Source: an uncultured Solirubrobacterales bacterium
GTDB lineage: Bacteria > Actinomycetota > Thermoleophilia > Solirubrobacterales > Solirubrobacteraceae
Assembly (NCBI GenBank): GCA_963767695.1
Contig: CAVYFE010000010.1
Coordinates: forward strand, 71,872-135,871
DNA length: 64,000 nt
Direction of reading: 5' to 3'
Shown here: positions 16,270 to 54,326 of the stretch, piece by piece
Position numbering within the stretch: the stretch's first letter is position 1
How the letters are laid out: each line of letters starts with the position of its first letter
Made by a program: the position numbers and the translations under genes
Notes under the pieces: generated by a model
What the model was told of the DNA's origin: nothing
The model's input: the letters and a program-made list of their open reading frames with translations, nothing else
Database searches by the model: none

Positions 16270-16271
16270 GA

Positions 16272-16736: not shown

Positions 16737-16744
16737 GCCCGACC

Positions 16745-16771
16745 GTTTCACGTTTTTCCCTACGGTGAAAC
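16745..16771. promoter_or_regulatory. parS-like site split by 13 bp
   Basis: GTTTCAC-gtttttccctacg-GTGAAAC versus canonical GTTTCACGTGAAAC. Confidence 0.5.
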
Positions 16772-16838
16772 AGGCAAGGCTCGGCCGGTATGGGGGCCGC
16801 GCTACAGGCAAGGCTCGGCCGGTATGGGGGCCGCGCTA
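16771..16838 (+). repeat. Perfect 34-bp tandem duplication
   Basis: CAGGCAAGGCTCGGCCGGTATGGGGGCCGCGCTA at 16771-16804 and 16805-16838. Confidence 0.95.
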
Positions 16839-16849
16839 CAACACCCCCT

Positions 16850-17209: not shown

Positions 17210-17212
17210 CGA

Positions 17213-17935: not shown

Positions 17936-17996
17936 GGATTCGGCAACCTGGCGGCGCCTGCATCTGACCGGGATCGACGGTAGCTTGGTGGCGACG

Positions 17997-18755: not shown

Positions 18756-19625
18756 CCGACAGAAGGGAATGGGCCGAGGGCTTGCAGCGATCCTCTCCGT
18801 GGCCCCCAAGGACGAGTCCGAGGAGCTCCGCCAGCTGCCGCTCGAGCTGATCTCCACGAACCCGAGCCAACCACGGCGCTCCCTGGACGAGCAGACCCTG
18901 CTCTCGCTGGCCGATTCGATTCGAGTCCGAGGCGTGCTGCAGCCGGTGCTGGTGAGGCCGCTCGTGGGCGGCCGCTACGAGCTGATCGCGGGCGAGCGCC
19001 GCTGGCGGGCGGCCGCTATCGCCGAGCTGGAAACGATCCCCGCCGTCGTACGCCGCCACGACGACGCCGCCTCACTCGAGGTGGCGTTGATCGAGAACAT
19101 GGCACGCGAGGACCTGAACCCCGTCGATGAGGCGCGGGCGTGCGCGGCGCTGGTCGAGGAGCTGGGGATGACGCGCGAGGACGTCGGGCTCCGTGTCGGC
19201 CGCAGCCGGGTGGCGGTCTCGAACCTGATTCGCCTACTCGACCTGCCCGACGAGGCGCTCGTCTTGATCGAGCGCGGCGAGCTAACCGAAGGCCACGGCC
19301 GCGCGCTGCTGCTGGCCGAGGACCACGCCGACCGCCGGAAGCTGGCCAAGGACGCGCTCGCGGGTCAGTGGTCGGTGCGCGAGCTCGAGGCGCGCGCCCG
19401 GGCTGTCGGCATCGCTGCGCGGGGGCGAAGCGGCCCCCGCCGCGAGCTTCATCCGGATCAGGCGGCGGCGGTCGAGCAGATCGCCGATGCGCTCGGGGAG
19501 GTGCTCGGGGCCGAGCTCGAGGTCAGCCCGGCCGGCCGCGGCTACCGCGCCCGAGCTGACGTTCCAGCTCGCTCGACGAGGCGCTCGAGATGGCCCGCCG
19601 GCTGCGGGTCCGCGCGGCGGCCTGA
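18748..19625 (+). CDS. parB: ParB/Spo0J (apparent C-terminal frameshift ~19550-19570)
   Basis: GMGRGLAAIL, GVLQPVLVR, IAGERRWRA, IENMAREDLNP; removing two extra C residues restores RAELTFSSLDEALEMARRL. Confidence 0.95.
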
Positions 19626-19742
19626 CCTCGCCGGCCTGGGACGCGGCGGCTCGGCGGGGCGCGGCCGGGACCCCGTCCCAGAGGGCTAGAATCCGTCGCG
19701 GATCGAGCGGGACGGTCGCAAAAGACGCCGCCAATACAGCAT

Positions 19743-22262: not shown

Positions 22263-23180
22263 GTGTCTGGAACAGTCGGTGTCATTGTCCTGGTCGTTGG
22301 GATCGGCGTGGTCGTGCTCGCGGCCGACATGTTCGTCGACGGCCTGCTCGGGGTCGCCCGAAAGGTGGGGATCGCGCCATTCGTACTCTCGGTCGCCCTC
22401 TCTGGATTTGAGACCGAGAACCTAGCCGCCGGGATCGCGGCCAACGCGAAGGGCTTGCCTGGAGCGGCGGCCGGCACATTCCTGGGCGGCGTCACGTTCG
22501 TGGCGCTAGGCGTGGCCGGTCTCGGCGGGCTGATCGCACCGATCCGCGTGGAGCTACCTGCGCGCTTCGCCGTTTGGACCGCGATCGCCCCGCTGCCGCT
22601 GCTCGGGTTCGCGATCGACGGGCGCCTCTCGCGCCCAGAAGGCGCACTCCTCGTGGTCTGGTCGGTTGTGGCGCTGGTTGGGCTGGCACGTTCGGGACGG
22701 GCGCTGCTCGCCGTCGAGGACGAGGAGCGCGTCCGGCGGCCCGCCCTGCGACTCCTTGCTGGACTGGGGCTTCTGACGGGCGGGGGATGGCTGATCGGCG
22801 AGGGTCTTCGCACTACCGTGCGCCAGCTGGGCGTCCCGCAGACGCTGCTTGGCAACACCGCGCTGGCGGCCACGGTCGAGGCCGAGGAGCTCGCACGCTT
22901 TGCGGTGCCGGCCCGTCGCGGACGCCCCGAGATCGGCCTCGGCAACATTGCCGGAACCGTTGTCCACTTCGCGGCGCTCAACGCCGGCATCATCGCGCTC
23001 GTCAAACCCCTCACGCTCGGGCACGACACCACCCGCTTCTACCTGCCGGTCGCGGCCGCCAGCCCCGCGGTCCTCGCCGCGCTGCTCCTTGCGCGCAAAC
23101 AGCTGGGGCGGACCGAAGGCGCGGCGCTGACCGGCCTCTACGCCGCCTATGTCGCAGCCGCGATCATCATCTCGACCTGA
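22263..23180 (+). CDS. CaCA-family (Na+/Ca2+ exchanger-like) cation antiporter with atypical alpha-repeats
   Basis: ~10 TM helices in two internal repeats; GFETENL and TVEAEEL at alpha-repeat positions, followed by GNIAGT-type motif. Confidence 0.7.
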   Translation: MSGTVGVIVLVVGIGVVVLAADMFVDGLLGVARKVGIAPFVLSVALSGFETENLAAGIAANAKGLPGAAAGTFLGGVTFVALGVAGLGGLIAPIRVELPARFAVWTAIAPLPLLGFAIDGRLSRPEGALLVVWSVVALVGLARSGRALLAVEDEERVRRPALRLLAGLGLLTGGGWLIGEGLRTTVRQLGVPQTLLGNTALAATVEAEELARFAVPARRGRPEIGLGNIAGTVVHFAALNAGIIALVKPLTLGHDTTRFYLPVAAASPAVLAALLLARKQLGRTEGAALTGLYAAYVAAAIIIST

Positions 23181-24121: not shown

Positions 24122-25219
24122 TCAGACACGCGCCGGTCGCTTCATCGTGCGATAGACGAACTCCTCCGTCTGCGCCGACTCGCGTGCCGTGATGACGCGG
24201 CCGTGATGTGGCGAGAACCGGCACACCGGGTCCGTGGCCGCCGCGTCGCCCGTCAGCCGCAGGGCCTGGCAGCGGCAGCCGCCCCAATCCACCTCTTGCT
24301 GTCCGAGCGGGCACGAGCCGCACGGCTCCTGCATCCAGCCCGTACCCCGGAAGCGCGCGAACGCGTGGGACTCGTTCCAGATCCATTCCAGGGGGTGCTC
24401 GCGGACGTTGGCGAACTCGAGCCCCGGAATCGTCGACGCCGCCTGGCAGGGCAACGCGTCGCCGTTCGGGGCGAGCACCATCGCCGTCCGGCCCCAGCCG
24501 CCCATGCATGGCTTCGGCAGCTCCTCGTAGAGGTCGGGGAGCACCCAGAGCACGTCGACTTGTGGTCCGACGCGCTCGCGGAAGCGCTTGACCGCTTCCT
24601 CCCCGCGTCGAAGCTGCTCCCACGACGGCAGGAGCGCCTCCTGGTTGACAACCGCCCAGCCGTAATACTGGGCGTTGGCAAGCTCGAGCCGCTGGGCCCC
24701 GAGATCGAGGGCGAGCTCGAGCAGCTCCTCGATGCGATCGAGGTTCTGCCTGTGCAGGACGCAGTTGATCGTCAGCGGGAAGTCGAGCTCCTTGACGAGG
24801 CGCGCAGCCGCGATCTTCTTCTCGAACGATCGGTTCCCCGCGATGCGGTCGTTGTCCTCTGCGTCCGGGCTTTGAATCGAGATCTGCACGTGGTCGAGCC
24901 CGGCGGCCTTGAGCGCCTCTGCGCGCTCGCGCGTGAACAGGGTGCCCGCGGTGATCAGCGACGAGTAGAGACCGGCGTCGCGCGCGGCCGCGCACAGCTG
25001 AACCAGGTCGCGGCGCAGCATCGGCTCGCCGCCAGTCAGCGCGAGCTGAAGGACGCCGAGCCCGCTCGCTTCCCGGAACACCCGGATCCAGTCCTCGGTC
25101 TCGAGTTCCCGGCGGTACCTCTCGCCGCCGATGTCCACCGGATTTGAGCAGTAGGGGCAGTGGAGTGGGCACCGGTAGGAAAGCTCGGCGATCAGCGTGA
25201 ACGGCCTAAGCTGCTGCAT
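24122..25219 (-). CDS. pqqE: PqqA peptide cyclase, radical SAM/SPASM
   Basis: ELSYRCPLHCPYCSNP, LTGGEP, PKPCMGGWG, DWGGCRCQA. Confidence 0.97.
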   Translation of the reverse strand: MQQLRPFTLIAELSYRCPLHCPYCSNPVDIGGERYRRELETEDWIRVFREASGLGVLQLALTGGEPMLRRDLVQLCAAARDAGLYSSLITAGTLFTRERAEALKAAGLDHVQISIQSPDAEDNDRIAGNRSFEKKIAAARLVKELDFPLTINCVLHRQNLDRIEELLELALDLGAQRLELANAQYYGWAVVNQEALLPSWEQLRRGEEAVKRFRERVGPQVDVLWVLPDLYEELPKPCMGGWGRTAMVLAPNGDALPCQAASTIPGLEFANVREHPLEWIWNESHAFARFRGTGWMQEPCGSCPLGQQEVDWGGCRCQALRLTGDAAATDPVCRFSPHHGRVITARESAQTEEFVYRTMKRPARV

Positions 25220-25469
25220 CGATCAGGAGTCCTCTCTGGGCCATGGCGTCGAGGAGCCCTCGGACGTCGTCGCGCAGGTCGGCGCCGGCGTACCGCGCAG
25301 CGAGGACGCCGACGATGTCGTCGAGCGATCGCTGTCCGTCGCACAGCTCGAGCACCTCCGCCGCGGTGGGATTGAGCCGCACGGCCCCCTCAGGGACCAG
25401 CAGCAGGTGCTCCTCGCGCACCTCGTCATACCGCAGTCGCGCGCCGGTGACGAGGCGAGGCCGAGTCAT
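25206..25469 (-). CDS. pqqD: PQQ peptide chaperone
   Basis: LRYDEVREEHLLLVPEGAVRLNPTAAEVLELCDG. Confidence 0.95.
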   Translation of the reverse strand: MTRPRLVTGARLRYDEVREEHLLLVPEGAVRLNPTAAEVLELCDGQRSLDDIVGVLAARYAGADLRDDVRGLLDAMAQRGLLIDAAA

Positions 25470-26203
25470 GCGGCACGGCCTGGCGGCTGCGTGTCGCCGC
25501 GCTCGATGGCGTCGAGTTGCGTCCAAAGCATCTCGGTCTTGAAGCGGAGCGCCGCGACCGCCGCGTTTTGTTGCTCGCGCGTTCGGCAGCGTTCGACCGT
25601 GAGCTCGAGCGCATACTGCGCGTCACGTGGCGCCTTCACGAGCCGGGTCTGGAAGTACTCCAGGCCAGCGGGGTCGATCCACGCGTAGTGGCGCTTGAGT
25701 GCCTCGAGCCGCACCTGGATCGCGGCCGGTCCGAACAGCTCGGTGAGCGATGAGGCGACCGCGTCGAGCCACGGCTTCTGGCGCGCGAAGTTCACGTAAG
25801 CATCAACCGCGTAGCGCACCGCCGGGAGCACATGCCGCTCGGACCCCAGTTCTGCTCGCGAGACGCCGAGCGCCTCGCCGAGCCGGAGCCACGACTCGAT
25901 GCCGCCCGTTCCCTCCGTTGTCCCGTCGTGGTCGATGATCCGCTGGATCCACTCGCGTCGGACCTCGACCTCGGGGCAGTTCGACAGGATCGCCGCGTCC
26001 TTCAGCGGGATGCACTTCTGGTAGTAGAAGCGGTTTGAGACCCAGCGCTGCAGCTCCTCGCGGGTGAGCTCTCCCGCGTCCATTCTCCTGTGGAAGGGAT
26101 GCAGATTGTGGTAGCGCGTTCCCTGGGCGCGCAGCTCGGCGATGAACTCCTCGGGCAGCGCCGGCGCGCTCTCGCCCGTCGGTCTCGTGGCAGTCTCAGT
26201 CAC
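25466..26203 (-). CDS. pqqC: Pyrroloquinoline-quinone synthase
   Basis: YHNLHPFH, NRFYYQKCIPLKDAAILSNC, RIIDHDG, AVDAYVNF. Confidence 0.97.
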   Translation of the reverse strand: MTETATRPTGESAPALPEEFIAELRAQGTRYHNLHPFHRRMDAGELTREELQRWVSNRFYYQKCIPLKDAAILSNCPEVEVRREWIQRIIDHDGTTEGTGGIESWLRLGEALGVSRAELGSERHVLPAVRYAVDAYVNFARQKPWLDAVASSLTELFGPAAIQVRLEALKRHYAWIDPAGLEYFQTRLVKAPRDAQYALELTVERCRTREQQNAAVAALRFKTEMLWTQLDAIERGDTQPPGRAA

Positions 26204-27129
26204 AGCTCGACCTCGAGGCCATCGTAGGCGACTTCGATCCCTGCGCGGGTGACCGCCCCCCGCTCGGGAGAGTCATCGAGCAGGATCGGGTTGGTGTTGT
26301 TGATGTGGACGAGCGCCTTGCGCGGTCGCTCCAGCCGCGCGAGCGCCTCGAGCGTCCCGCCGGGACCTGAGAGCGGCACGTGGCCCATCTCCCGCGCGCT
26401 CCGAGGCGAGATGCCGAGTCGGGCGAGCTCATCGTCGCGCCAAAAAGTGCCGTCGACGAGCACGAGATCGCTGGTGGCGAACCGGGAGAGCACGTCGTTG
26501 TCCAATCGGGCGAGACCGGGGGCGTAGGTCACGACCCCTCCACCCGCGCGGTCCCGAAAGACAAACCCGCTCGCGCCGAGCTCCAGATCCGACCCGTCCT
26601 GATAGCGCGGAGGGTCACCGCCCACGTCGAACGCCTCGACGCTGAGGCTCGACCCCTCGAGCGGACTGGGCAGCTCTGGTTCCAGCCTCCGCCACTCGGC
26701 GCCGCAATAACGGTCGAGAATCGGCAGCACGGGATATCCCTGCCTCAGCGCGCGCTCGACACCCTCGTCGCCGTATACGCGCACCGGCGTCGCCGACTCC
26801 CGCAGGAGCAGAAGCCCTGCCGTGTGATCGATCTCCGCGTCAGTCAGGAGCACGCCGGCGATCGGTGACGCGCGGACACCGTCGACCCGCGGAGGCACGA
26901 TCGCTGCAAGCTGCTGGCGCGCGTCCGGCGAGGCGTTTACGAGAAACCAGGGTCCCTCGCCGCCACGGATCGCCAGCGACGACTGCGTACGGGGTCGCGC
27001 ACGCGCACCCGCGCGCGCAGCCTCACATGTCGGGCAATGGCAATTCCACTGCGGAAACCCTCCGCCAGCGGCCGAGCCGAGAATCAGAACGCGCACGCGG
27101 CAGAAGAACCGGTTCGTAGCCCCAGGCAA
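26200..27129 (-). CDS. pqqB: PQQ biosynthesis hydroxylase (start may be ~27096)
   Basis: LGSAAGGGFPQWNC, RTQSSLAI, LTDAEIDH, VHINNTNP. Confidence 0.96.
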   Translation of the reverse strand: MPGATNRFFCRVRVLILGSAAGGGFPQWNCHCPTCEAARAGARARPRTQSSLAIRGGEGPWFLVNASPDARQQLAAIVPPRVDGVRASPIAGVLLTDAEIDHTAGLLLLRESATPVRVYGDEGVERALRQGYPVLPILDRYCGAEWRRLEPELPSPLEGSSLSVEAFDVGGDPPRYQDGSDLELGASGFVFRDRAGGGVVTYAPGLARLDNDVLSRFATSDLVLVDGTFWRDDELARLGISPRSAREMGHVPLSGPGGTLEALARLERPRKALVHINNTNPILLDDSPERGAVTRAGIEVAYDGLEVEL

Positions 27130-27158
27130 GCACCGGAGGCCACGCCGGCTTCAGCGTC

Positions 27159-27233
27159 CTACCGGTGGTACAGGTAGGAGGTGACCTCCGAGCACATCTC
27201 GATGAACTCAAACTCCGGCTTGGTCCACACCAT
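27159..27233 (-). CDS. pqqA: PQQ precursor peptide
   Basis: MVWTKPEFEFIEMCSEVTSYLYHR with the E-x3-Y core, directly upstream of pqqB. Confidence 0.93.
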   Translation of the reverse strand: MVWTKPEFEFIEMCSEVTSYLYHR

Positions 27234-27310: not shown

Positions 27311-28724
27311 ATGATGCGCGTCGAGGTAACCGCGGGCGACCCGGACACGAGCGGCGCCGACCTCGTCGCAGTCGCGGCGGGAGCGCGGGCCTCGGAGCTC
27401 GGCGCCCCCGAGCGCGCGATCGCGGACGCCGATCCGGTCGCGATCGTCTATCAGCACTCGGCCCACCCCGGCGCCCCGCTCGCTGTCGTCGCGCTCGAGC
27501 CGGACGCCGAGGGACTGCGGACGGCTGCGGCGCGGGCAGTGCGCGCGTGCAGGGGTGGCGGGACTGTCGTGTGGGCGCTCGATGCATCCCTGCCGGTCAC
27601 CGTCGAGGAGCAGGTGCGGGCGCTGAGCGAAGGCGCCGTCATCGGCGGCTACGACGGCCGGCGCTGGCGAAGCGGCGAGCGGCCGCGCAGCGTGGAGCGC
27701 TTCGTGATCAGCGGCTGCGGCGGGGAGCTCGCACCCGTGGCCGATCGCGCCGCGCTCGTCGCGCGCTGGACGAACACCGCTCGCGAGCTCGTCGACGCCC
27801 CACCCAACGTGATGTCACCGACCGCGCTCGCGGACCGGGCGGCGGAGTTTGCGGGGCTCGCGGAGCGAGAGCATCGACCCCGCCGAGGCGGGGCTTGGCG
27901 CGCTCGCCGCGGTCGGCGCGAGCAGCCCGGCCGCGCCGCTGCTCCTGGTCCTCCGGCACGAGTCACCCGACGCGCAGGATGCACCGCGGCTGGCGCTCGT
28001 CGGCAAGGCTGTCACGTTCGATACGGGGGGCTACTTCCTCAAGTCGCAGACGGACATCGTCCGCCAGAAGGCCGATATGGCGGGCGGCGCGGCGGTCGTG
28101 GCAGCGCTCGGCGCGATCGCCGAGCTGGGGCTCCCGCTGGCGGTCACCGGTGTCGTACCGGCCTGCGAGAACATGCTCAGCGGCAGCGCAATGCGTCCGA
28201 CCGACGTCATCCCGACAGCTTCCGGCCTCACCGTCGAAGTGACGAATCCTGACGCTGAGGGGCGTCTGATCCTGGCGGATGCCCTGTGGTACGCGCGCCG
28301 CGACGGCGCGACCCACCTCGTGGACTTAGCGACCCTGACAGGCGCGTTGCGCGCCGGCATGGGCGATCTCTACGCCGGCGTCTTCGCGACAGACGAATCG
28401 TGGCGCGACGCCGTCGTCGATGCGGGCAACGCAAGCGGCGATCTTGCCTGGCCGTGGCCGCTTCACCCGCGCTATCGACCACTGATCGACTCGACGGTGG
28501 CCGACCTGCGCAACACAGCCGGAAAGAGCTTCGGCTTCCCGATTGTCGCCGCGACGTTCTTGGCGCAGTTCGCTGGCCAGGGGCCGTGGGCACACGTCGA
28601 CATGCTGGGCCCCGCGCTGCTCGACGAGGACCGCGGCGACGCGTTCGGGCGCGGCGCGACTGGCTATGGCGTCCGCCTGCTGGTCGAGCTCGCGACGCGC
28701 CTGAGCGCCGCGGCGACAACGTGA
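27311..28724 (+). CDS. M17 leucyl aminopeptidase family (apparent frameshift ~27860)
   Basis: LVGKAVTFDTGG, KADMAGGA, ENMLSG, NPDAEGRLILAD, DLATLTGA. Confidence 0.88.
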
Positions 28725-28752
28725 GTGAATGCCCAGGCGTTACGCTGGCGCC

Positions 28753-29367
28753 ATGGATGTCGGAGGTCGCGATCCGCAAGCTGCGACCGCTATCACGCTC
28801 GGACGGGTCGTCGACGCCTCCAAGTTCGACTTCGCCGCCGCGGAGCGCGCCGCGCTGGAGTTGCTGCGCGCGATTGGCGCCGACGTCGCCTCTCCGGCTC
28901 TGCTCGAGACTCCGCGCCGGGTCGCCGCCTCCTTCGTCGAGCTGGTCACGCCCGCCGAGCTCGGCGCGACCTTATTTCCGAATGAAGGCTGCTACGACGA
29001 GCTCGTGGTGGTGCGCGATATCCCGTTCCACACGCTGTGCATGCATCACCTGCTGCCGTTCCACGGTTGTGCCCACGTCGGGTATCTGCCGGGAGAGTGC
29101 ATCATCGGGATATCGAAGCTCGCGCGCGTGGTCGAGGCGTTCGCCCGGGACCTGCAGCTGCAAGAGCGCCTGACGGTGCAGATCGCCGATTGGCTGGAGC
29201 AGGAGCTCGCGCCGCGGGGCGTGGGGGTGGTGCTCAGCGCGGAGCATATGTGCATGACGATCCGCGGCGTCCGCAAGCCGGGGGCTCGAACCGTCACCTC
29301 GGCGCTGCGCGGCTCACTGCGCGACGATGCGCGCACGCGCCAGGAGTTCCTCAGCCTTGTCGGCTGA
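28753..29367 (+). CDS. folE: GTP cyclohydrolase I (FolE type)
   Basis: ETPRRV, FHTLCMHHLLPF, ISKLAR, QLQERLT, AEHMCM. Confidence 0.95.
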   Translation: MDVGGRDPQAATAITLGRVVDASKFDFAAAERAALELLRAIGADVASPALLETPRRVAASFVELVTPAELGATLFPNEGCYDELVVVRDIPFHTLCMHHLLPFHGCAHVGYLPGECIIGISKLARVVEAFARDLQLQERLTVQIADWLEQELAPRGVGVVLSAEHMCMTIRGVRKPGARTVTSALRGSLRDDARTRQEFLSLVG

Positions 29368-29386
29368 AACCGGTGAGCAGAGACCG

Positions 29387-29944
29387 CTGATCGAGACCGT
29401 GGTGACCACGACCGGGAGCGACGGTGTCGTCAACTGCGGCGCGATGGGGGTGCGCTGGAGCGAGGAGGAGCTTGTCTTCTGGCCCTTCGAGGCCACGCGC
29501 ACATTGCGGAACCTGCGCCTTCGAGGCGAGGCGGTCGTGCATCTCACCGACGATGTGCTCCTGTTTGTGCGGGCCGCGCTGGGTCATCCACGCCCCGCTA
29601 TGCGCGCCGCGAGCGCGATCGGCGGCTCGGTGATCGAGGAGGCGAACTCCTGGCGGGAGGTAGTCGTGACCGAAATCACGCCCTGCGAGGGTGGGCTGGC
29701 TCGCTCCCGGGTGCGTGCGCGGGTCGTTGCGACCGGCACAGGCACGCGGCAGCCACTCGGCCTGTGCCGCGCCCGGCACGCCGCCGTCGAAGCGTCGATC
29801 TTCGCCAGCCGGATTAAATGGCTCGGCGCCGAGCGCGTCCAGACGGAACTCCACCGCCTTCAGGAGCTGGTGGACAAGACCGGCGGACCCCGCGAGCATG
29901 CGGCGATGGAGTACGTGCGACGCTACGTCGTCGAGCGAACGTGA
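29387..29944 (+). CDS. DUF447-family protein (found in methanopterin clusters); start uncertain
   Basis: IETVVTT...NCGAMG...PFEATRTLRNL...HLTDDVLLF; CRARHAAVEASI. Confidence 0.75.
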   Translation: MIETVVTTTGSDGVVNCGAMGVRWSEEELVFWPFEATRTLRNLRLRGEAVVHLTDDVLLFVRAALGHPRPAMRAASAIGGSVIEEANSWREVVVTEITPCEGGLARSRVRARVVATGTGTRQPLGLCRARHAAVEASIFASRIKWLGAERVQTELHRLQELVDKTGGPREHAAMEYVRRYVVERT

Positions 29945-30906
29945 CCGAGATCGTGGTCACCGCGCCGGCGCGGCTGCATTTCGGAATGCTCGATCCGGCG
30001 GGCCTTGGAGCGCGCCGCTTCGGGGGCTTTGGCGTGGGGGTCGAGTCTCCGCGAGTGGTCGTGGCGGTCAGGCGCCGGTCCGGGGACGCGGTCAGCGTGT
30101 CCGGATCAGAGCCCGAGCGTGCCACGACGTTCGCTCGCCAGGCGCGAAGGGCATTCGGGCTCAGCGGGGGCGTGGAGGTGAACGTGCGCGAGGCGATCCC
30201 GCCACACGTCGGGCTCGGGTCGGGCACCAAGCTGGGCCTGGCGATCGCGCGCGGGCTAGCCGAGCTCGCGGGCATCTCCGCGGGCCCGGAGCAGCTGACC
30301 GAGGCGAGCGGGCGTGGGGCGCGATCCAGCGTCGGCTGTTGGACGTTTGCCGCCCCGGGACTCGTGGTCGAGGCCGGCGTCCGCGACGGGGACTACATCA
30401 GCCCCGTGGTGGCCCGGTACCCCATGCCTGAGCGGTGGCGGTGCGTGCTCGCGCTGCCCCTCGGGGTGGAGGGAGTCTCCGGGGACGCGGAGGAGCGCTT
30501 CTTCGGTCAGCTGCGCGAGTCGCCGGCCGCCGAGCCGCGCGTGCCCCGGCTGCTGCTGACCGCGCTGCTGCCCGGCCTGCTGAGAAGCGACATCGATCAG
30601 TTCGGCGTCGCGCTCGCCCAGATCCAGCGCGAGATGGGATCGATCTTCGCCGCCCAGCAGGGTGGCGTGTTTCACCCGCGCGCGGCTCCGCTGGTCGACG
30701 CGCTGCTGGCCTTGGGCGTCGGAGCGGTGGGACAGAGCTCGTGGGGCCCTTCGGTCTACGGGATCGTCGATGGCCCCCAGGCCGCCGCCGACGTGGCCGA
30801 CCGACTGCGTGTCGCGGCGGGCGCCGGCACTGAGGTCAGCGTGGTCGACTTCGATCGCCGGGGCGCGTGGATTGCCCGCCGCGGCTCGGGGCAGGCGGCG
30901 GCATGA
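29941..30906 (+). CDS. mptG: beta-RFAP synthase (GHMP family)
   Basis: TAPARLHFGMLD, HVGLGSGT, GQSSWGP. Confidence 0.92.
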   Translation: MTEIVVTAPARLHFGMLDPAGLGARRFGGFGVGVESPRVVVAVRRRSGDAVSVSGSEPERATTFARQARRAFGLSGGVEVNVREAIPPHVGLGSGTKLGLAIARGLAELAGISAGPEQLTEASGRGARSSVGCWTFAAPGLVVEAGVRDGDYISPVVARYPMPERWRCVLALPLGVEGVSGDAEERFFGQLRESPAAEPRVPRLLLTALLPGLLRSDIDQFGVALAQIQREMGSIFAAQQGGVFHPRAAPLVDALLALGVGAVGQSSWGPSVYGIVDGPQAAADVADRLRVAAGAGTEVSVVDFDRRGAWIARRGSGQAAA

Positions 30907-31628
30907 GGTTGCTGGTCAGCGTCGTCTCCGCGGAGGAGGCCCGGCGCGCACTCGCCGGTGGAGCGGACATCATCGATGTCAAGGATCCGGGCGAAGGGGC
31001 GCTCGGTGCCCCGTCGCCGGGCGTCCTGTCCGAGGTGGTGCGGGTGGTCGGCACGGCTGTCCCCGTGAGCGTCGCGCTGGGTGACCTGCCCAACCTCCCG
31101 CACACCGCGGCGCTGGCCGGGCGCGGCGCCGCGTTCAGCGGCGCCAGCTATGTCAAGGTCGGGCTACGCGGGGTGCGCGAGCTAGACGCCGCCGTGGCGC
31201 TGGTGGGCGCCGTGGCGGACGCGGTGGGACCACGGACCGCGGTGATTGCCGCAGCGTACGCGGACGCCGACGCGCTCGATCCTCCCGCTCTCGCTCCCGG
31301 GTGGCTGCCCGTGCTGGTGGACGGGGCGGGCATCTCCGGCGCACTCGTCGACACGTTCGTGAAGGACGGCCGTGGCCTGTACGGCTGGATGTCCGAGTGC
31401 GAACTGGCCGACCTCATCGCTCGCACGCGCAAGGCGGGCGCGAGCTTCGGCGTCGCCGGACAGCTGACCCGGGGCCAGCTGCGCCGAGTGGCGGCCGATG
31501 TCGTCGGTGTCCGCTCGGCGGTCTGTCGCGGTGGCGACCGAGCGGCCGAGCTCGACGCCGAGCTGGTGGCAGCCGCGGTCGCGGAGGTGCGCGCCCGCAA
31601 TGGGTGGGCGGGTCCTAATCCCGAGTGA
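30903..31628 (+). CDS. mfnB: (5-formylfuran-3-yl)methyl phosphate synthase (DUF556)
   Basis: LLVSV..AEEA..ALAGGADIIDVKDPGEGALGA, YVKVG, LVDTFVKDG, GVRSAVC. Confidence 0.9.
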   Translation: MRLLVSVVSAEEARRALAGGADIIDVKDPGEGALGAPSPGVLSEVVRVVGTAVPVSVALGDLPNLPHTAALAGRGAAFSGASYVKVGLRGVRELDAAVALVGAVADAVGPRTAVIAAAYADADALDPPALAPGWLPVLVDGAGISGALVDTFVKDGRGLYGWMSECELADLIARTRKAGASFGVAGQLTRGQLRRVAADVVGVRSAVCRGGDRAAELDAELVAAAVAEVRARNGWAGPNPE

Positions 31629-42439: not shown

Positions 42440-42952
42440 ATGGCCATCACGCTGGCAACCGGAGAGGCGCTGACCGGTGACGGTAACGAGCTGGCCCACA
42501 TCGACCTTCTGATCGGGTCCAAGAGCGGACCGGTCGGTGAGGCGTTCGCCAGCGCCTTCACCAACGAGAAGGAGGGTCACACCAACCTCATGGCGGTGGT
42601 CACCCCCAACCTGCCGGCCAAACCGGACACGGTGATCTCCAACAAGGTGACGATCAAGGGCGCGAAGCAGGCCGTGCAGCTGTTCGGTCCTGCCCAGGCC
42701 GCGGTCGCCCGCGCGGTGGTGGACTCGGTCGCCGAGGGAGTGATCCCCAAGGATCAGGTCGACGACCTGTGTCTGATCGTGGGCGTGTTCATCCACTGGG
42801 AGGCCGAGGACGACAAGAAGATCTTCGACTACAACTACGAGGCCGTGAAGCTGTCGATCGCCCGCGCCCTCAAGGGTGAGCCGAGCATCGACAAGGTGCT
42901 GGCCGAGACGCCCGCGGCGCGTCACCCGTTCGCCAGCGGCGCCGAGGGATAG
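42440..42952 (+). CDS. fae: Formaldehyde-activating enzyme
   Basis: [52 protein letters not shown]. Confidence 0.96.
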
Positions 42953-47559: not shown

Positions 47560-47605
47560 GAGCGGCAACGGCTCACCTCTTTGCCCGGCGATCAGTGAAT
47601 TGTGA

Positions 47606-47667
47606 CTGATTGGTCAGGATCACCACCTGACCGGTCAGTCAGTGTGCCACCCTGACCGGTCGGTCAG
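47606..47667. promoter_or_regulatory. Three palindromic operator-like boxes upstream of the PQQ dehydrogenase operon
   Basis: CTGATTGGTCAG (47606), CTGACCGGTCAG (47627), CTGACCGGTCGG (47652). Confidence 0.6.
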
Positions 47668-47759
47668 TAGGTGTTCTCGCTGACGGCCAGGTTGTGCCGC
47701 GGTCGCGCCCCTGTTAGGTTTTTTTGGCCCATTTTCCGTGTTGGAAGGAGAGAGTCACT

Positions 47760-48212
47760 GTGGCCGCCACTGCCGATAAGGCTGTTATCGAGGGATTGGC
47801 AAAGCAGAACGGGGTGACGTTGGGGCGGGTGCTCGGCCGCGGAAACGTCGGGATGGCCGAGGAGGGATCCGACGGCAAGATGCACGCCACCGTCCGGATC
47901 CCGCTGGACGAGCTGGTGTTCGATCCCGGGGTCCTGGTCCTCCCTCACGGCGGCCACCTCGAGCTCGAGATCATCAACGACGACAACAACTCCCATTGCG
48001 CGGTCTTGCCGTGCAACGGCGATTCCAAGTTCATCTGGCTCGTGAACTTCTCGAAAGGCAGGGCAAGCCTTGAGCTCGACGGCCCGGGCTACTACTGGTA
48101 CGGCTCCCGGACCGGAAACGACGAGGGCGGCGGCCTGACCGGCACGATCGTCGTCGGCGGAGAGGTCCCGGACGAAGCCAAGCTCCACCGCCCACCCCAG
48201 CCGCGACCGTAG
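47760..48212 (+). CDS. MSMEG_3727-like PQQ-associated cupredoxin-fold protein
   Basis: DELVFDPGVLVLPHGG, NDDNNSHCA, LDGPGYYW, GEVPDEAKLHRPPQPRP; directly upstream of the dehydrogenase. Confidence 0.75.
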   Translation: MAATADKAVIEGLAKQNGVTLGRVLGRGNVGMAEEGSDGKMHATVRIPLDELVFDPGVLVLPHGGHLELEIINDDNNSHCAVLPCNGDSKFIWLVNFSKGRASLELDGPGYYWYGSRTGNDEGGGLTGTIVVGGEVPDEAKLHRPPQPRP

Positions 48213-48225: not shown

Positions 48226-49926
48226 ATGGCAACTGAGACTGAGTACGTCGACGCCGGCGAGGCGGTCGACTTCCGGAATCTGAGCCCGGGCTATATCGGC
48301 AGTGCCCCGTCGGTGGCGAGAGGCGTCAACTACGACCGGATCCTCAAGGCTCGCGATGCGGAGCCCCATAACTGGCTGACGTACTACGGCGCCTACGACG
48401 GGCAGCGCTTCAGCCCGCTCGACCAGATCACCTCGAGGAATGTCCAGCACCTGAAGCCCGAGTGGGTGTTCCAGTGCGGCTCGGTGGGCATGCACTCGGG
48501 CGCGTCGACGTACTCGTTCGAGGCGTCGCCGCTGGTGGTCGACGGCATCATGTACGTCACCGGCTGGGATGGCTGGGTCTGGGCGCTTGACGCCAAGAAC
48601 GGAGCGGAGCTGTGGCGCTACCACCGCGCGTCCCCGTACGACGTTCGCCTGTGCTGCGGCAACGTCAACCGCGGGTGCGCCGTGGCGGCCGGGAAGGTCT
48701 TCATGGCCACCCTGAACGCCCACGTGATCGCCCTCGACGCCACGAACGGCCAGCTGATCTGGGAACAGCCATACGGCGACGTGCGGGCCGGCGAGAGCGC
48801 AACGGTCGCCCCGCTGATCGTCAAGGACATGGTCATCGTCGGGAGCTCCGGCGGCGAGTTCGGGGTGCGCGGCCACGCCGACGCGTTCAAGCTCGAGACC
48901 GGAGAGCGCGTCTGGCGCACCTACATGGTTCCCGAGCCGGGGGAGCCGGGTTCCGAGACGTGGCCCGCCGAGGGCGAGGCATGGGCGCGCGGCGGCGGTA
49001 ACTGCTGGACCACACCCACGTTCGACCAGGAGCTCAACCTCCTGTACTTCAACACGGGCAACCCGTGCCCCGACTTCGACGGGGCGGTCCGCGAGGGCGA
49101 CAACCTGTTCACGAACTGCGTCGTGGCGGTCGATCCCGACAGCGGCCAGATCAAGGGGCACTACCAGTACACCCCGCACGACGTATGGGACTACGACTCG
49201 ACGATGGAGAACATCCTGTTCGAGATGGACGGGCGGAAGTGTTCCGGACACTTCGACAAGAACGGGTACTTCTTCGTCCTGGACCGCACGGACTGCAGCC
49301 TGATCCGGGTCGTGCCGTTCGTCGATCGCATCACCTGGGGCGAGATCGACGCGAGCGGCAAGGTGACGCCGCGAGTGTTCCCCGACAAGGAGGGGGATCC
49401 CGTCCACTTCTGGCCCGGCCCGGCCGGGGCCAAGGAATGGACGCACGCCGCCTACAGCCCGAGGACGGGGCTGTTCTATGCGCCGGTGCAGGACGTCGGG
49501 GCCACGGCCACGCGACGGCGCCGGGAGTTCAAGGAGAGCATCCCGTACTGGGGCGCGGGCGTCGCCGTGGACACCGAGGACGTGTCCGGTTACCTCTCCG
49601 CCTTCGACCCAGCCACGGGTCAGGAGAAGTGGCGCTTCAGCAATGAACACCCGATGACTGCGTCGGTGCTGGCCACGGCCGGCAACCTCGTGTTCACCGG
49701 CGACCCCGCGGGGATATTCAGGGCGTTCAACGCCAACAGTGGAGAGCTGCTGTGGCAGTTCACGTGCGGCAGCGGCCACCACTCGAGTCCCTGCAGCTAC
49801 AGCGTCGACGGGCGGCAGTACATCGCCGTGCCGGTCGGATATGGCGCTTGGACCGAGGGGTTTTATCCTGGGGCCCTCGCGCAGGCCGGTGGATCCGCCC
49901 TGTTCGCGTTCGCGCTGCCGGAGTAG
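48226..49926 (+). CDS. PQQ-dependent alcohol/methanol dehydrogenase, no signal peptide
   Basis: AGAAAGGAG SD; WLTYYG..QRFSPLDQI, CCGNVNRG, GGEFGVRG, TGNP, TPHDVWDYD, GRQYIAV. Confidence 0.95.
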   Translation: MATETEYVDAGEAVDFRNLSPGYIGSAPSVARGVNYDRILKARDAEPHNWLTYYGAYDGQRFSPLDQITSRNVQHLKPEWVFQCGSVGMHSGASTYSFEASPLVVDGIMYVTGWDGWVWALDAKNGAELWRYHRASPYDVRLCCGNVNRGCAVAAGKVFMATLNAHVIALDATNGQLIWEQPYGDVRAGESATVAPLIVKDMVIVGSSGGEFGVRGHADAFKLETGERVWRTYMVPEPGEPGSETWPAEGEAWARGGGNCWTTPTFDQELNLLYFNTGNPCPDFDGAVREGDNLFTNCVVAVDPDSGQIKGHYQYTPHDVWDYDSTMENILFEMDGRKCSGHFDKNGYFFVLDRTDCSLIRVVPFVDRITWGEIDASGKVTPRVFPDKEGDPVHFWPGPAGAKEWTHAAYSPRTGLFYAPVQDVGATATRRRREFKESIPYWGAGVAVDTEDVSGYLSAFDPATGQEKWRFSNEHPMTASVLATAGNLVFTGDPAGIFRAFNANSGELLWQFTCGSGHHSSPCSYSVDGRQYIAVPVGYGAWTEGFYPGALAQAGGSALFAFALPE

Positions 49927-50017: not shown

Positions 50018-50581
50018 GTGTTCGCGCTTATCTCTCTCGGGTTTACCCTGAGCCTGGACAACTTCCGCAGCTCGCTCGTGCTGGGGGGGCTTAAGCCGAC
50101 CTTCCTTCAATCGGTCAAGACATCCGCCATCTTTGGCCTGTGGGATGGCGTCGCACCGGCGGTCGGGATCCTCATCGGCCACTTCCTGAGCGACAAGATC
50201 GACAACACCGCCGACACGTTCGCAATGATCGGCCTTGGTACATACGGCCTGTTCCTCATCGTCCGGGCGGTGATCGCACCCGAGCGCGCGGATCCAAACC
50301 TGACGTGGGCGAGGCGCGGGCTGCCGCTCCCCCTGAGCGTTGACAACGTCGCCGCCGGCACGGCGCTTGGCCTCGCTGGGTTCTCCCCCTGGCTCGCGCC
50401 CATCGTGTTTGGGGTCATCACCTTCGCGGTGTCGGTCGCCGGGCACCAGATCGGCCGCACAGTGGCGCACTTCGTCGACTTCATCCCCCGCATCAACACC
50501 GACCTGTTGACCGGGATCGCGTTCGCCGCAATAGCAGCCTTGATGGCACTCGGTGTTACGCTCCCGCTCTCGGGCGGCTGA
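50018..50581 (+). CDS. MntP-family metal efflux protein
   Basis: Two repeats LSLDNF and LSVDNV; ~6 TM helices. Confidence 0.8.
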   Translation: MFALISLGFTLSLDNFRSSLVLGGLKPTFLQSVKTSAIFGLWDGVAPAVGILIGHFLSDKIDNTADTFAMIGLGTYGLFLIVRAVIAPERADPNLTWARRGLPLPLSVDNVAAGTALGLAGFSPWLAPIVFGVITFAVSVAGHQIGRTVAHFVDFIPRINTDLLTGIAFAAIAALMALGVTLPLSGG

Positions 50582-51039: not shown

Positions 51040-52341
51040 TTGGAGCAGTTGACCCCTACACCTCCCGCGATGGCAGAGGGCCTGCCCCCGGCGTCCACCG
51101 CGGTCGCCCCCGCGTCCTCCGCAGCCGCCTCCGAGTCGTCTGAAGCCGCCGCTGCGCCCTCGGAAGCTGCGCCGGCGCTGCAGCCGCTGCGCGGGCGGGT
51201 TAGCAAGTTCGTGATCCCGGAGGTGATCTTCGGCGTAGGCACCCTGGCGGAGGTGGGCGGCGCGGTCCGCCGAGTCGGCGGCCGGCGCCCGATGCTCGTG
51301 AGTGATCCGGGCGTGCTGGCCGCCGGCTGGGTCGAGCGCGCGATGCCGCACCTCGCCAACGTGCGCGTTCAGTGGCGACTGTGGCACGACCTGACGCCCA
51401 ACCCCAAGGACATCGAGGTCGAGGCGGCGTTCGAGAGCTACCTCGAAAGCGGCTGCGACGCGCTCCTCGCAATCGGTGGTGGGAGCTGCATCGACCTCGC
51501 CAAAGCGGTGGCGATCCTCAGCGGCAACGGCGGCCAGATCCTCGACTACGAGGGCATCGACCGCGCCACCAGCCCGATCCCGCCGATGGTGATGGTCCCG
51601 ACGACCGGTGGCTCGGGATCGGACGTGTCCCAATTCTGCGTGGTGACCGACACCAGGCGACGGTTCAAGGCGACGATCGGAGGCCGCGCGCTCGTCCCCG
51701 AGATCTCCTTGACAGACCCGGAGCTGCTGACCACGATGTCCCCCGAGCTGACCGCGCACACCGGGATCGATGCGCTCAGCCATGCGATCGAATCTTCGGT
51801 GTCCGAAGCCTGCGACTTCCTGAGCAAGGGGCTCGCGATCGCCGCGGTTCGGGCGATCGTTGAGCACCTGCCGGCGGCGGTCGAGAATCCGCTCGATCTC
51901 ACGGCGCGCGAGGGTATGGCACGGGCGAGTCTGCAGGCCGGGATGGCGTTCACCAACGCGCTGCTCGGTGCGACGCACGCGATCGCCCACCAGATCGGTG
52001 GTGCGCTCGACCTTCCGCACGGGCTGCTCAACGCGATCCTGATACCGCACGTGATGCGCTTCAACGCCGAGACCCACGCCGACCGCTACGTCGACGTGGC
52101 GAGAGCGCTGGGAATCGAGACCGATGGGCTCGATGCCAGCACCGCCGCCGAGCGGGCAATCGACCGCGTCGAGGAGCTCAGCCGAGCCCTGGGGATTCCC
52201 AGCGGGCTGAAGGAGATCGGCGTCCATCCGGCCGACTTCGACACGTTCGCGGTCAACGCGCTCCGCGACGCCTACATCGCGACCAACCCGAGGCCAGTCG
52301 GGGAGGACGATGTCCGCCGCATCTGCATCGCCGCCTACTGA
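51040..52341 (+). CDS. Iron-containing (type III) alcohol dehydrogenase family
   Basis: PEVIFGVG, GGGSCID, PTTGGSGS, DALSHAIE, HAIAHQ, HGLLNA; Ala/Ser-rich N-extension. Confidence 0.93.
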   Translation: MEQLTPTPPAMAEGLPPASTAVAPASSAAASESSEAAAAPSEAAPALQPLRGRVSKFVIPEVIFGVGTLAEVGGAVRRVGGRRPMLVSDPGVLAAGWVERAMPHLANVRVQWRLWHDLTPNPKDIEVEAAFESYLESGCDALLAIGGGSCIDLAKAVAILSGNGGQILDYEGIDRATSPIPPMVMVPTTGGSGSDVSQFCVVTDTRRRFKATIGGRALVPEISLTDPELLTTMSPELTAHTGIDALSHAIESSVSEACDFLSKGLAIAAVRAIVEHLPAAVENPLDLTAREGMARASLQAGMAFTNALLGATHAIAHQIGGALDLPHGLLNAILIPHVMRFNAETHADRYVDVARALGIETDGLDASTAAERAIDRVEELSRALGIPSGLKEIGVHPADFDTFAVNALRDAYIATNPRPVGEDDVRRICIAAY

Positions 52342-53662
52342 CCAGCCCCCGGCCGTCGACCGGTTGGCGCTCGAGCGCCTGATCGGCGTCCGCTCCTCCA
52401 AGCCGAGCTTCTACGCCGCCTGGCGCGACAAGTCCGCCCGGCTCGACCACACGATCGAGACGCTCGAGTGGATCTCGGCCGCTCTGTGCGCCACTCCCGA
52501 CGGACCGGGGGCCCTGTGCGACGCGGTGGTCGAGGCCGCCGCTCACCACTTCAACTCGCCCTGGGCCGTGATGATGTTCTCGGGCGCCGATGCCGGCGAG
52601 GCTCTTCCCAGGGTCATCGTCCACACCCGCGGCGAGGTCGTCCAGCGCTGGGACGCACCGGCGTCCGCGCTGGCGGAGCTCGCCCAGCGAACGCTCGTCG
52701 CTGAGCGGCCCGTGGTTGTGGCCGAGAACGAGCGGTACGCGCTAGGCGCGGCGGTGGGTGGCGAGCCATGCGCTGCGGTGGCGGCGCCGATGCCAGTCCG
52801 CGGGGAGCTCGCTGGGATGCTCGCCGTGGGGCTGCCGGCTGACGCCCAGGTCGAGCCGAGCGATCTCTCGATCCTGCTGACGCTCGCCAACCACGCCGGC
52901 GTCGCCCTCCACAACGCGTGGCTGTTCCAGGAGAACGAGCGGCGCGCGGCCGAGCTCGAGCGGCGGAGCACGGAGCTCGAGGGCATCCGGCGACGGCTCG
53001 AGCACGCCGGCCGGCGCCAGCTGCTGAGCGCGGAGCGCAACCGCATCGCCCGTGAGCTGCATGACAGCGTCGCCCAGCACTTGTTGACGATCGGCATGAA
53101 CCTCGAGTGGTGCCGCCGCCACGAGTCGACCTCGTCTCCGGTGCTGGAACGCGTGTCGGCGGCGCAGTCCCTCGCGCGCGCGGCCGTGGCCGAGATCCGC
53201 GAGGTGATCTTTGAACTCGCAAGCGACGGCCAGATCGAGCTACGCGGCGCGCTCCGCGACGTGATCAAGGACGTCGAGGCGGGCACACGTCTCGAGGTCG
53301 GGCTCCGGGCGTACGGCGAGACGCATCCGGTCGCGGCGATCACGCAGCACGCGCTCGTGCAGATCGCCCGCGAGGCGCTATTCAACGTCGTCCGTCACGC
53401 GGATGCGGCCCACGCCTGGGTGACGCTCCGATGGCGGCCTCACGTCGTGTCGCTCGCGGTCGCCGACGATGGGCGCGGGCATCCGGTGGAGCTCCACCGC
53501 CATCTTCTCTCTCCGCATCCCTCGGGCGAGCATCTCGGGCTCGCTGGGATCGCGGACCGGGTGCGCGGCCTGGGCGGGACGGCGTGGTTCGAGCGCCGCC
53601 GTGGCGGCGGCGTCAGGCTGAAGGTCGAGGTCCCCCTGGGAGGCACAGTTGGTATCGCCTGA
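52310..53662 (+). CDS. Soluble GAF-HisKA_3 sensor kinase, MnoS/MadS-like
   Basis: LERLIGVRSSKPSFY, ERNRIARELHDSVAQ, EALFNVVRHA, DDGRG, HLGLAGI; no TM helix. Confidence 0.88.
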   Translation: MSAASASPPTDQPPAVDRLALERLIGVRSSKPSFYAAWRDKSARLDHTIETLEWISAALCATPDGPGALCDAVVEAAAHHFNSPWAVMMFSGADAGEALPRVIVHTRGEVVQRWDAPASALAELAQRTLVAERPVVVAENERYALGAAVGGEPCAAVAAPMPVRGELAGMLAVGLPADAQVEPSDLSILLTLANHAGVALHNAWLFQENERRAAELERRSTELEGIRRRLEHAGRRQLLSAERNRIARELHDSVAQHLLTIGMNLEWCRRHESTSSPVLERVSAAQSLARAAVAEIREVIFELASDGQIELRGALRDVIKDVEAGTRLEVGLRAYGETHPVAAITQHALVQIAREALFNVVRHADAAHAWVTLRWRPHVVSLAVADDGRGHPVELHRHLLSPHPSGEHLGLAGIADRVRGLGGTAWFERRRGGGVRLKVEVPLGGTVGIA

Positions 53663-54326
53663 GGCTGTCGACGCGCCCGCCCGCGTGCTGCTTGTCGACG
53701 ATCACGCGATCGTCCGCCGCGGTCTGCGCTCGATCCTCGAGCTCGAGCCCGATGTCTCGGTGGTGGCCGAGGCGGGCGGCCGCAGCGAGGCGCTCCGCGC
53801 GCTCGACCAGGCCAAGCCGGACATCGTGCTGCTCGACCTCAAGCTGAGCTCCGACCACGACGCCGAGGGCCTCGACCTGTGCAGCGAGATCCTCGAGCGC
53901 CGGCCGCAGTCGAACGTCGTCGTCCTGTCGACGTTCCTGGACGAGGGTCTGCTCAATCAGGCGCTTCGGCGCGGCGCCAAGGCATACGTGCTCAAAGAGG
54001 TCGACGTCGTCGAGCTCGTGCGGATCATCCGCGCCGTGTCGCGCGGCGGGTCCGCGTTCGACGGCCGCAGCGCGGCCATGGTCAGGGCACTCGTCGCCGG
54101 CGAGCACGCGCGGGCGGAGCCGGTATTGACCGAGCGCGAGCGCGAGGTCACCAGGCTGATCGCCGGCGGGCTGACCAACCGTGAGATCGGCCACCGCATC
54201 TTCGTGAGCGAAAGCACCGCCAAGTTCCACGTCCGCAACGTGATGCGAAAGCTCGGCGTCCAGAGCCGCGCGGAGGTCGCGTACACCGCCGGCAAGCGCG
54301 GCCTGCTGGACGAGTCGTTGCACTAG
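53649..54326 (+). CDS. NarL/LuxR-type response regulator, MnoR/MadR-like
   Basis: LLVDDHAIVR, LLDLKL, AYVLK, LTERERE, GLTNREI, TAKFHVRN. Confidence 0.92.
   Translation: MVSPEAVDAPARVLLVDDHAIVRRGLRSILELEPDVSVVAEAGGRSEALRALDQAKPDIVLLDLKLSSDHDAEGLDLCSEILERRPQSNVVVLSTFLDEGLLNQALRRGAKAYVLKEVDVVELVRIIRAVSRGGSAFDGRSAAMVRALVAGEHARAEPVLTEREREVTRLIAGGLTNREIGHRIFVSESTAKFHVRNVMRKLGVQSRAEVAYTAGKRGLLDESLH

Follow-up and report, generated by a model that had tools for sequence, protein, structure and literature searches.

A cupredoxin-like protein lacking three of four type-1 copper ligands, encoded with a signal-less lanthanide-type PQQ dehydrogenase in Solirubrobacterales

Introduction

What does a cupredoxin do once most of its copper ligands are gone, and why should such a protein be encoded directly ahead of an alcohol dehydrogenase that depends on pyrroloquinoline quinone (PQQ)? 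In the usual picture, PQQ alcohol and methanol dehydrogenases operate in the periplasm together with their acceptors and hand electrons to cytochromes c, and blue-copper carriers serve some quinoprotein dehydrogenases (amicyanin for methylamine dehydrogenase, azurin for the quinohaemoprotein alcohol dehydrogenase of Pseudomonas putida). The question is raised by 64,000 nucleotides of genome sequence from an uncultured Solirubrobacterales bacterium (GenBank assembly GCA_963767695.1, contig CAVYFE010000010.1, positions 71,872 to 135,871, forward strand), hereafter the window, whose own numbering is used unless another contig is named. Positions 47760..48212 (+) encode a 150-amino acid protein whose stop codon (48210-48212) is separated by 10 nt from the gene of a PQQ dehydrogenase. 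An initial annotation, made from the letters of the window, placed this small protein just upstream of the dehydrogenase and noted an H-C motif (NNSHCAV) in it, and both details are confirmed. The reading that we favour, with a probability only slightly above even (about 0.55), is that a one-time blue-copper electron acceptor has been kept, without its copper, as a subunit of a PQQ dehydrogenase of the lanthanide type that is probably cytoplasmic.

A cupredoxin-like member of the MSMEG_3727 family

The small protein belongs, as the initial annotation had supposed, to a curated, uncharacterised family, the "MSMEG_3727 family PQQ-associated protein" (TIGR04339, 241.4 bits against a cutoff of 75; PF23509, 235.3 bits against a cutoff of 27; E values about 1e-70), and PF23509 was the only match in a Pfam scan. 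It is a full-length, high-scoring member, and its setting is the one that the family name implies: it stands beside a dehydrogenase of the methanol/ethanol family in an actinobacterium that makes PQQ, given that pqqA-E lie in the window. The family must be considered narrow, because only 141 clusters came out of a search through 1.8 billion cluster representatives; a member is encoded in at least 496 of 185,579 species-representative genomes. The same cluster search also gave remote matches to very large multi-repeat proteins (P0224, P0235, P0244, and P0259). The only papers found to name MSMEG_3726 or MSMEG_3727 (PMC6529628, PMC3023750) place both in the PQQ cassette of Mycolicibacterium smegmatis. 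Searches of the literature on the family, on copper or cupredoxin partners of PQQ dehydrogenases, and on cytoplasmic actinobacterial PQQ enzymes found no functional study, and no paper on the family's fold, its two ligand states, or the link between ligands and export.

The claim that the protein is cupredoxin-like holds on structure prediction, the assignment being made because of an AlphaFold2 model and its Foldseek matches. Modelled alone (mean predicted local distance difference test score [pLDDT] 81.5; predicted template-modelling score 0.72), the protein has an N-terminal helix and a beta sandwich in which eight strands are long and one, at residues 30-32, is short; the C-terminal tail has low to moderate pLDDT. 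The best Foldseek matches in the PDB were auracyanins, CuA domains, the cupredoxin domain of nitrous oxide reductase, NirK, and EfeO (E values ~1e-6 to 1e-5). A single-sequence search of the PDB returned chance matches only, and the likeness to copper proteins was seen solely through the fold search and a profile built from family members of the copper type. In that profile, the ligands H, C, H, and M align onto the type-1 copper region of Geobacillus NirK (E value 2e-6), and pseudoazurin (E value 7e-6) and plastocyanin are also matched.

Two states of the copper site

The ligand set of a type-1 site (His...Cys-x(n)-His-x(n)-Met) is not present in the window protein, which keeps His79 alone. 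To describe the family we read the four ligand positions (79, 116, 121, and 126) in 382 proteins aligned to one hidden Markov model, in a sample whose diversity came from a search of 50%-identity representatives and from contig look-ups. The state of the window protein, HSDL, was found in 136 proteins, the complete copper set, HCHM, in 126, and HSQM in three. Mixed states are nearly absent (one HDHM and a few singletons). The initial annotation had allowed that all members might share the loop of the window protein; the family turned out to have two clean loop states.

The annotation had also read three of the four ligands as replaced by Ser, Asp, and Leu, and alignment with the copper-site-intact members shows these equivalences to be correct. 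Such members carry FGCPVANHAGRGMLG where the window protein has YWYGSRTGNDEGGGLTG, with Cys at the place of Ser116, His at that of Asp121, and Met at that of Leu126; position 122, an Ala in the copper type, is Glu in the window protein. A full set of type-1 copper ligands can be read in the divergent full-length members (H...YWFGCPVANHAGRGMLG). Neither class shows any change at His79. Among HSDL proteins made nonredundant at 80% identity, S116, D121, L126, D74, N77, N86, and D88 are likewise invariant, and E122 is present in 95%. Both classes share N73, D75, N120, G123, and G125, as well as a tail with A140, D143, R144, P145, Q147, and P150, from which the window protein departs by a His at position 143.

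In a neighbour-joining tree, the HSDL proteins form a single clade. The HSQM and HDHM proteins form a separate, exported lineage in which Cys was lost independently. One metagenomic contig (L085) holds two cupredoxin-dehydrogenase pairs, at 5967-6599 (-) and 10001-10528 (+), one with the full H-C-H-M set and the other exported and H-S-Q-M. The latter adjoins a mer (mercury resistance) operon; in it the copper Cys was lost a second time, independently, and export was kept.

Export signals and the partner dehydrogenase

The two classes differ in their N termini. A lipobox was found in 88% and a hydrophobic N terminus in 91% of the full-length HCHM proteins (n = 123), and neither was found in any of the HSDL proteins (n = 121). 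When the DNA was read upstream to the preceding stop codon, lipoprotein signals were present in 8/8 loci whose last three ligand positions read CHM and in 2/2 that read SQM, and 75 of 80 SDL loci were without any signal. Five SDL loci scored as hydrophobic were rejected as exceptions, because the stretch in question is a translated 5' leader containing the ribosome-binding site. The partner enzymes follow the same division: no dehydrogenase with an HSDL partner has a hydrophobic N terminus (72 loci), and those with HCHM or HSQM partners carry lipoprotein signals (five loci). The two genes are rarely apart, the dehydrogenase lying directly downstream of the small gene in 85/87 loci.

For the window protein, the likely start is the GTG at 47760, and the longest form of the open reading frame (ORF) begins with a TTG (47724..48212). 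An in-frame stop at 47715 leaves room for at most 14 additional residues, all in a non-hydrophobic stretch, and therefore a signal peptide is impossible for the small protein. Its absence, as first annotated, is borne out. Neither protein of the window pair has a hydrophobic or twin-arginine N terminus, even when read back to the preceding stop.

The dehydrogenase scored 592.7 bits against TIGR03075 (methanol/ethanol family; cutoff 480). Its best solved relative is 6zcv (E value 5e-108), annotated as a quinoprotein ethanol dehydrogenase, which we take to be PedH, a lanthanide enzyme. The lanthanide-type motif PHDxWDYD is present in 77/77 partner dehydrogenases in which this position was readable, and the D-Y-D occurs both beside HSDL proteins (72 loci) and beside HCHM or HSQM proteins (five loci). 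The initial annotation had proposed that loss of the copper ligands might covary with D-x-D in the partner, and had considered the loop suited to lanthanide ions (Ln3+). This covariation fails, given that D-x-D accompanies the intact and the lost copper site alike, and the argument for Ln3+ that was built on it falls too. Because D-x-D is found in all 77 partners, ligand loss tracks the loss of export on both proteins and not the metal type of the dehydrogenase.

The annotation also stated that no cytochrome gene is present, and we agree: neither the small protein nor any other plausibly coding ORF in the window has the CxxCH haem motif.

Coding evidence and transcription

The small ORF is confirmed as real. 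It is not a chance ORF because its composition is of the coding type (GC content at third codon positions, 0.85), its scores against the family models are high, its ratio of nonsynonymous to synonymous substitution (dN/dS) is low, and it is transcribed. The median pairwise dN/dS over 50 orthologues is 0.145, and the gene is under purifying selection.

Transcription was assessed from three soil metatranscriptomes, using contigs at ≥80-88% identity, in which contig depth is a rough measure and the contrast with the DNA control is large. Depth was about 170-550 for the small gene, about 240-2400 for the dehydrogenase, and about 140-800 for fae, the gene of a formaldehyde-activating enzyme upstream (Table 1). 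The genes between fae and the pair, and those downstream, were mostly ≤10 deep, and the coverage of fae and of the pair exceeds that of the intervening tetrahydromethanopterin (H4MPT) genes by a factor of tens to hundreds. Some contigs span the cupredoxin-dehydrogenase junction. A soil DNA metagenome used as control was flat at 5-20 over the same 10 kb. The sharp RNA boundaries could have been an artefact of stronger sequence conservation in the two genes, but the contrast with the DNA control held at 80% likeness. The pattern suggests active one-carbon (C1) or alcohol oxidation by Solirubrobacterales in soil.

A proposed copper-free subunit and its alternatives

We infer that the type-1 site is ancestral, because it is homologous to that of other cupredoxins. 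The ancestor would then have been a lipoprotein with type-1 (blue) copper, the dedicated partner of one clade of lanthanide-signature PQQ dehydrogenases and most likely their electron acceptor, in place of cytochrome cL or XoxG. In Actinomycetota, the export signals would have been dropped from both proteins, and Cys, His, and Met lost together. The pair most likely works in the cytoplasm, where alcohol oxidation would share a compartment with the PQQ synthesis and the Fae/H4MPT formaldehyde pathway that are encoded around it. Type-1 copper binding needs the Cys thiolate, and because of this the small protein is not a blue-copper carrier. It would instead be kept as an obligatory, co-translated partner, probably docking onto the dehydrogenase through the conserved face of the ligand loop and through its C-terminal tail (LDRPxQPRP), and would stabilise the enzyme or position it for its present electron acceptor. 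That loop and tail make this contact is suggested by their conservation across classes, the coupling of the genes, and their co-expression. The initial annotation had listed a rewired carrier, a chaperone of a non-copper metal or of PQQ, and a structural subunit as possible roles, each of which the sequence data would allow; what these data do favour is a partner protein that is conserved and under constraint, in preference to a decayed relic.

Several points weigh against this proposal. The strict invariance of His79, Ser116, Asp121, and Glu122 exceeds what a structural relic needs and fits a new ligand set at least as well. Electron transfer may still pass through the small protein by other means. 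The presumed cytoplasmic location is read from one kind of evidence, namely, the absence of Sec, Tat, or lipoprotein signals. The HSQM/HDHM lineage is exported and also without Cys, and export and copper retention are therefore not perfectly linked. Finally, within each class most of the sequences sampled share ≥70% identity, and the counts given above represent a few deep lineages, not hundreds of independent events.

The alternative that survives best, tentative as it is, takes the invariance of the loop at face value: the old copper site would have been rebuilt as a hard (O/N-donor) metal site from His79, Asp121, Glu122, Ser116, and possibly Asp74/Asp75. Such a site would bind Fe or Mn that relays electrons from reduced PQQ (PQQH2), or Ca2+/Ln3+ that is delivered to or held for the dehydrogenase. 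The HSDL class has kept S116, D121, L126, H79, D74, and N77 without exception, and E122 nearly so, with copper gone, and this places two new carboxylates at the former solvent-exposed His ligand (D121) and its neighbour (E122). A conserved protein-protein interface would explain the same invariance equally well. The partner bears the lanthanide signature, and an enzyme working in the cytoplasm would have to find its metal there; D-x-D is equally present where the partner keeps its full copper ligands, however, and nothing ties the loop change to lanthanide use in particular. An MntP-family cation transporter gene accompanies only the signal-less module, and one of the fold matches, EfeO (7wgu), has a cupredoxin domain that binds metal but is copper-less. 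On the other side, one His with carboxylates is not a known electron-transfer site, and the small protein has no EF-hand, other known Ln- or Ca-binding motif, or Pfam match of that kind. As regards lanmodulin-type EF hands in particular, there was no Pfam or NCBIfam match, and D74, D75, D121, and E122 form no EF-hand motif. The fuller version, in which a cytoplasmic lanthanide-type PQQ dehydrogenase of Actinomycetota is served by an ex-blue-copper partner re-tooled to a His/Asp/Glu/Ser non-copper metal site that relays electrons or handles Ln3+, is somewhat more doubtful still.

It is improbable that the pair is exported without an N-terminal signal and works outside the cytoplasmic membrane, the ligand change having some other cause such as copper scarcity. 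Other PQQ dehydrogenases of the type act in the periplasm, and the signal-less enzymes retain a vicinal Cys-Cys pair, normally a disulfide. Against this stand about 80 loci in which neither protein has a hydrophobic or twin-arginine N terminus back to the preceding stop, the lack of any conserved neighbour with a Tat signal, and the position of the genes among those of cytoplasmic PQQ synthesis and H4MPT metabolism.

We give even less weight to the idea that copper is still bound through noncanonical residues (e.g., His79 with Cys80, Cys85, His63, or His66). All of these are present in the window protein, and Cys80 occurs in 89% of the nonredundant HSDL set, but His66 is not conserved, His63 is found in 68%, and position 85 is Ser in 84% of the class. 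Cys80 is itself replaced by Ala or Ser in the most divergent HSDL proteins, and the copper-type class has Ala, Met, or Ile at this core position. The AlphaFold2 model further suggests that the adjacent residues of this beta strand face opposite sides.

A decaying remnant without present function, for which the loss of three of four ancestral cofactor-site ligands could speak, is effectively refuted by conservation (dN/dS about 0.15, invariance of the substituted residues, and position and ribosome-binding site kept in 85/87 loci and two actinobacterial classes) and by expression (RNA coverage equal to that of the dehydrogenase).

Comparison with known systems

Amicyanin, azurin, pseudoazurin, and auracyanin share the cupredoxin fold with the window protein, which is likewise found with its dehydrogenase, being encoded beside it. 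It differs from classical blue-copper carriers in being without Cys, the second His, Met, and an export signal, and in adding an N-terminal helix and a conserved Pro-rich C-terminal tail. The exported sister class is closer to the membrane-tethered carriers of the auracyanin type, with its full H-C-H-M site and lipid anchor. In CyoA, subunit II of the cytochrome bo3 quinol oxidase, copper ligands were lost as the electron route changed, and the cupredoxin domain was retained as a subunit. The resemblance lies in a ligand-less cupredoxin fold whose close homologues keep the ligands (here, HSDL and HCHM within one Pfam family). It is a resemblance of fold only: CyoA is membrane-anchored, periplasmic, and part of another enzyme system, whereas ligand loss in the present family goes with loss of export. 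The cupredoxin domain of EfeO (PDB 7wgu), one of the Foldseek matches, also lacks a classical type-1 set in a protein annotated as metal-binding. EfeO is a periplasmic iron-uptake component of different domain architecture, and here too the likeness is known from fold alone.

Small partners encoded with PQQ methanol/ethanol dehydrogenases are known in XoxG/cytochrome cL, an electron acceptor, and in MxaI, the structural small subunit of the MxaFI methanol dehydrogenase. The window protein differs from XoxG/cytochrome cL in having a cupredoxin sandwich and no haem motif, and neither the Pfam scan nor the PDB sequence search gave any similarity to MxaI or XoxG. The partner dehydrogenase shares the D-x-D motif and the vicinal Cys pair with PedH, ExaF, and XoxF. 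It differs from them in having no signal peptide and in belonging to a separate, uncharacterised clade that is always accompanied by a PF23509 protein instead of a cytochrome.

What emerges is a widespread clade of lanthanide-signature PQQ dehydrogenases (Nitrospira, Gemmatimonadota, and, by source names, several other diderm phyla) paired with a lipoprotein cupredoxin and not with a cytochrome, and the same pair in Actinomycetota without export signals, its copper site lost in one clean switch. The pair is thus a natural experiment on the loss of a cofactor after a change of compartment. If it is truly cytoplasmic, one must ask how electrons from PQQH2 reach the respiratory chain, how lanthanides enter, and what a copper-free cupredoxin contributes. 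Should the metal site have been re-tooled, the cupredoxin scaffold would carry a site of a new class, and PQQ and lanthanide biochemistry would have a new, non-periplasmic mode that is highly expressed in soils. The pair may explain part of the methanol or alcohol turnover attributed to soil Thermoleophilia. Cultured hosts include Streptomyces sp. NBC_01483, Nitrospira moscoviensis (the source name of a closely related dehydrogenase), and Mycolicibacterium smegmatis (by family name).

Distribution

A locus scan gave the 80 closest loci, all from Thermoleophilia, and HSDL proteins are encoded in all 80 of these Solirubrobacterales and Thermoleophilaceae genomes (the nearest at 96% identity). 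Another is encoded on a linear plasmid of Streptomyces sp. NBC_01483, in the order katG, cupredoxin, dehydrogenase, pqqBCDE, MntP-family gene. It should be noted that the HSDL state in Actinomycetota was read in Thermoleophilia and Streptomyces, and that M. smegmatis is linked through the family name alone. The HCHM state was verified in one Nitrospira sp. genome and one Longimicrobium sp. genome, in both cases as lipoproteins of diderm bacteria; for most other copper-type members, the taxonomy is inferred from the source names of the partner enzymes. The sources given for closely related dehydrogenases (67-88% identity) are Armatimonadota, Verrucomicrobiales, Gemmatimonadota, Thermoanaerobaculia, Gammaproteobacteria, and Nitrospira moscoviensis.

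In the Nitrospira sp. locus (L089, 5356-10131), a NorB/COX1-like oxidase that includes a cytochrome c-like domain is encoded after the copper-type pair, and DUF2231 membrane proteins flank the copper-type pair in the Longimicrobium locus (L090/L091) and on another contig (L084). These proteins are possible downstream electron acceptors of the exported system.

Genomic context

The features of the window that bear on the pair are collected in Table 1.

Table 1. Features in and around the cupredoxin-dehydrogenase pair (window coordinates)
Feature	Position	Strand	Remarks
pqqABCDE	24122..27233	-	Complete PQQ biosynthesis cluster; cofactor supply
fae (formaldehyde-activating enzyme)	42440..42952	+	Opens the stretch of H4MPT C1 genes that immediately precedes the pair
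Three 15-nt palindromic boxes (TGACnnnnnnGTCAG)	47603..47667	.	Copies TGACTGATTGGTCAG, TGACCGGTCAGTCAG, and TGACCGGTCGGTCAG; exactly 25 bp start to start; upstream of the operon
Proximal element GGTTGTGC-N17-TAGGTT	47690..47720	+	Kept upstream in 12/12 related loci inspected
Ribosome-binding site GGAAGGAGAG	47743..47752	+	7 nt 5' of the GTG start; kept across related loci
His79 codon	47994..47996	+	Sole type-1 copper ligand position retained; His of NNSHCAV
Cys80 codon	47997-47999		Cys of NNSHCAV
Former copper-binding loop S116-R-T-G-N-D121-E122-G-G-G-L126	48105..48137	+	Invariant within the actinobacterial class; codons of Ser116 at 48105-48107, Asp121 at 48120-48122, Leu126 at 48135-48137
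C-terminal tail GEVPDEAKLHRPPQPRP	48159..48209	+	Conserved in both family classes; probably docks onto the dehydrogenase
Partner PQQ-dependent alcohol dehydrogenase, 567 aa	48223..49926	+	No signal peptide; co-covered with the small gene in metatranscriptomes
Vicinal Cys144-Cys145 of dehydrogenase	48652-48657	+	Kept in the signal-less enzymes
Lanthanide-type motif PHDVWDYD of dehydrogenase	49174-49197	+	D-x-D signature
MntP-family membrane protein	50018..50581	+	Follows the dehydrogenase; recurs beside the signal-less module

The H4MPT-linked C1 genes of the window encode Fae, an Mtd-type dehydrogenase, a DUF1464 protein, a pterin-binding/DUF6513 protein, a CitG-like protein, and ATP-grasp proteins. 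In about 60/80 related loci the pair is immediately preceded by H4MPT genes, and the product of fae would be a cytoplasmic sink for formaldehyde. The MntP-family gene follows the dehydrogenase in 49/80 Thermoleophilia loci, also flanks the Streptomyces cassette (L088, 14441-15031), and is absent from the seven exported-type loci inspected. Its product, a putative cation efflux protein, may be the route by which PQQ or the metal of the enzyme crosses the membrane.

Upstream of the operon, the palindromic boxes form a candidate operator array. Similar CTGACCGGTCAG boxes or arrays precede the orthologue in some related loci and are absent from others; with the strict pattern found in 18/85 loci, the boxes were rejected as a universal feature. 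The proximal element is a candidate -35/-10 promoter of the two-gene unit, proposed from its conservation. A scan for E. coli-type promoters and terminators, based on an E. coli-type consensus, gave nothing useful.

The pqq cluster includes a PqqA peptide (MVWTKPEFEFIEMCSEVTSYLYHR) at 27159-27233 and is flanked by a gene of the Na/Ca-exchanger family (22263-23180) and by an M17 aminopeptidase (27849-28724). Next to it, at 28729-31628, genes for GTP cyclohydrolase I, a DUF447 protein, a GHMP-kinase-family protein, and 4-HFC-P synthase (MfnB-type) are grouped, pointing to H4MPT- or methanofuran-type cofactor biosynthesis in an actinobacterium. Downstream of the pair, 51040-54326 encodes an iron-type alcohol dehydrogenase whose best NCBIfam match is ErcA (432 bits, below the cutoff of 550), then a GAF histidine kinase and a LuxR-type response regulator. 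This layout resembles the ercS'/ercA/erbR regulators of PQQ-dependent ethanol oxidation, ErcA being the regulatory alcohol dehydrogenase of Pseudomonas. At the other end of the window (4953-19689), the minus strand carries the chromosomal origin genes gyrA, gyrB, recF, dnaN, and dnaA, with yidC/jag and parA/parB after them; the methylotrophy island therefore adjoins the chromosomal replication origin.

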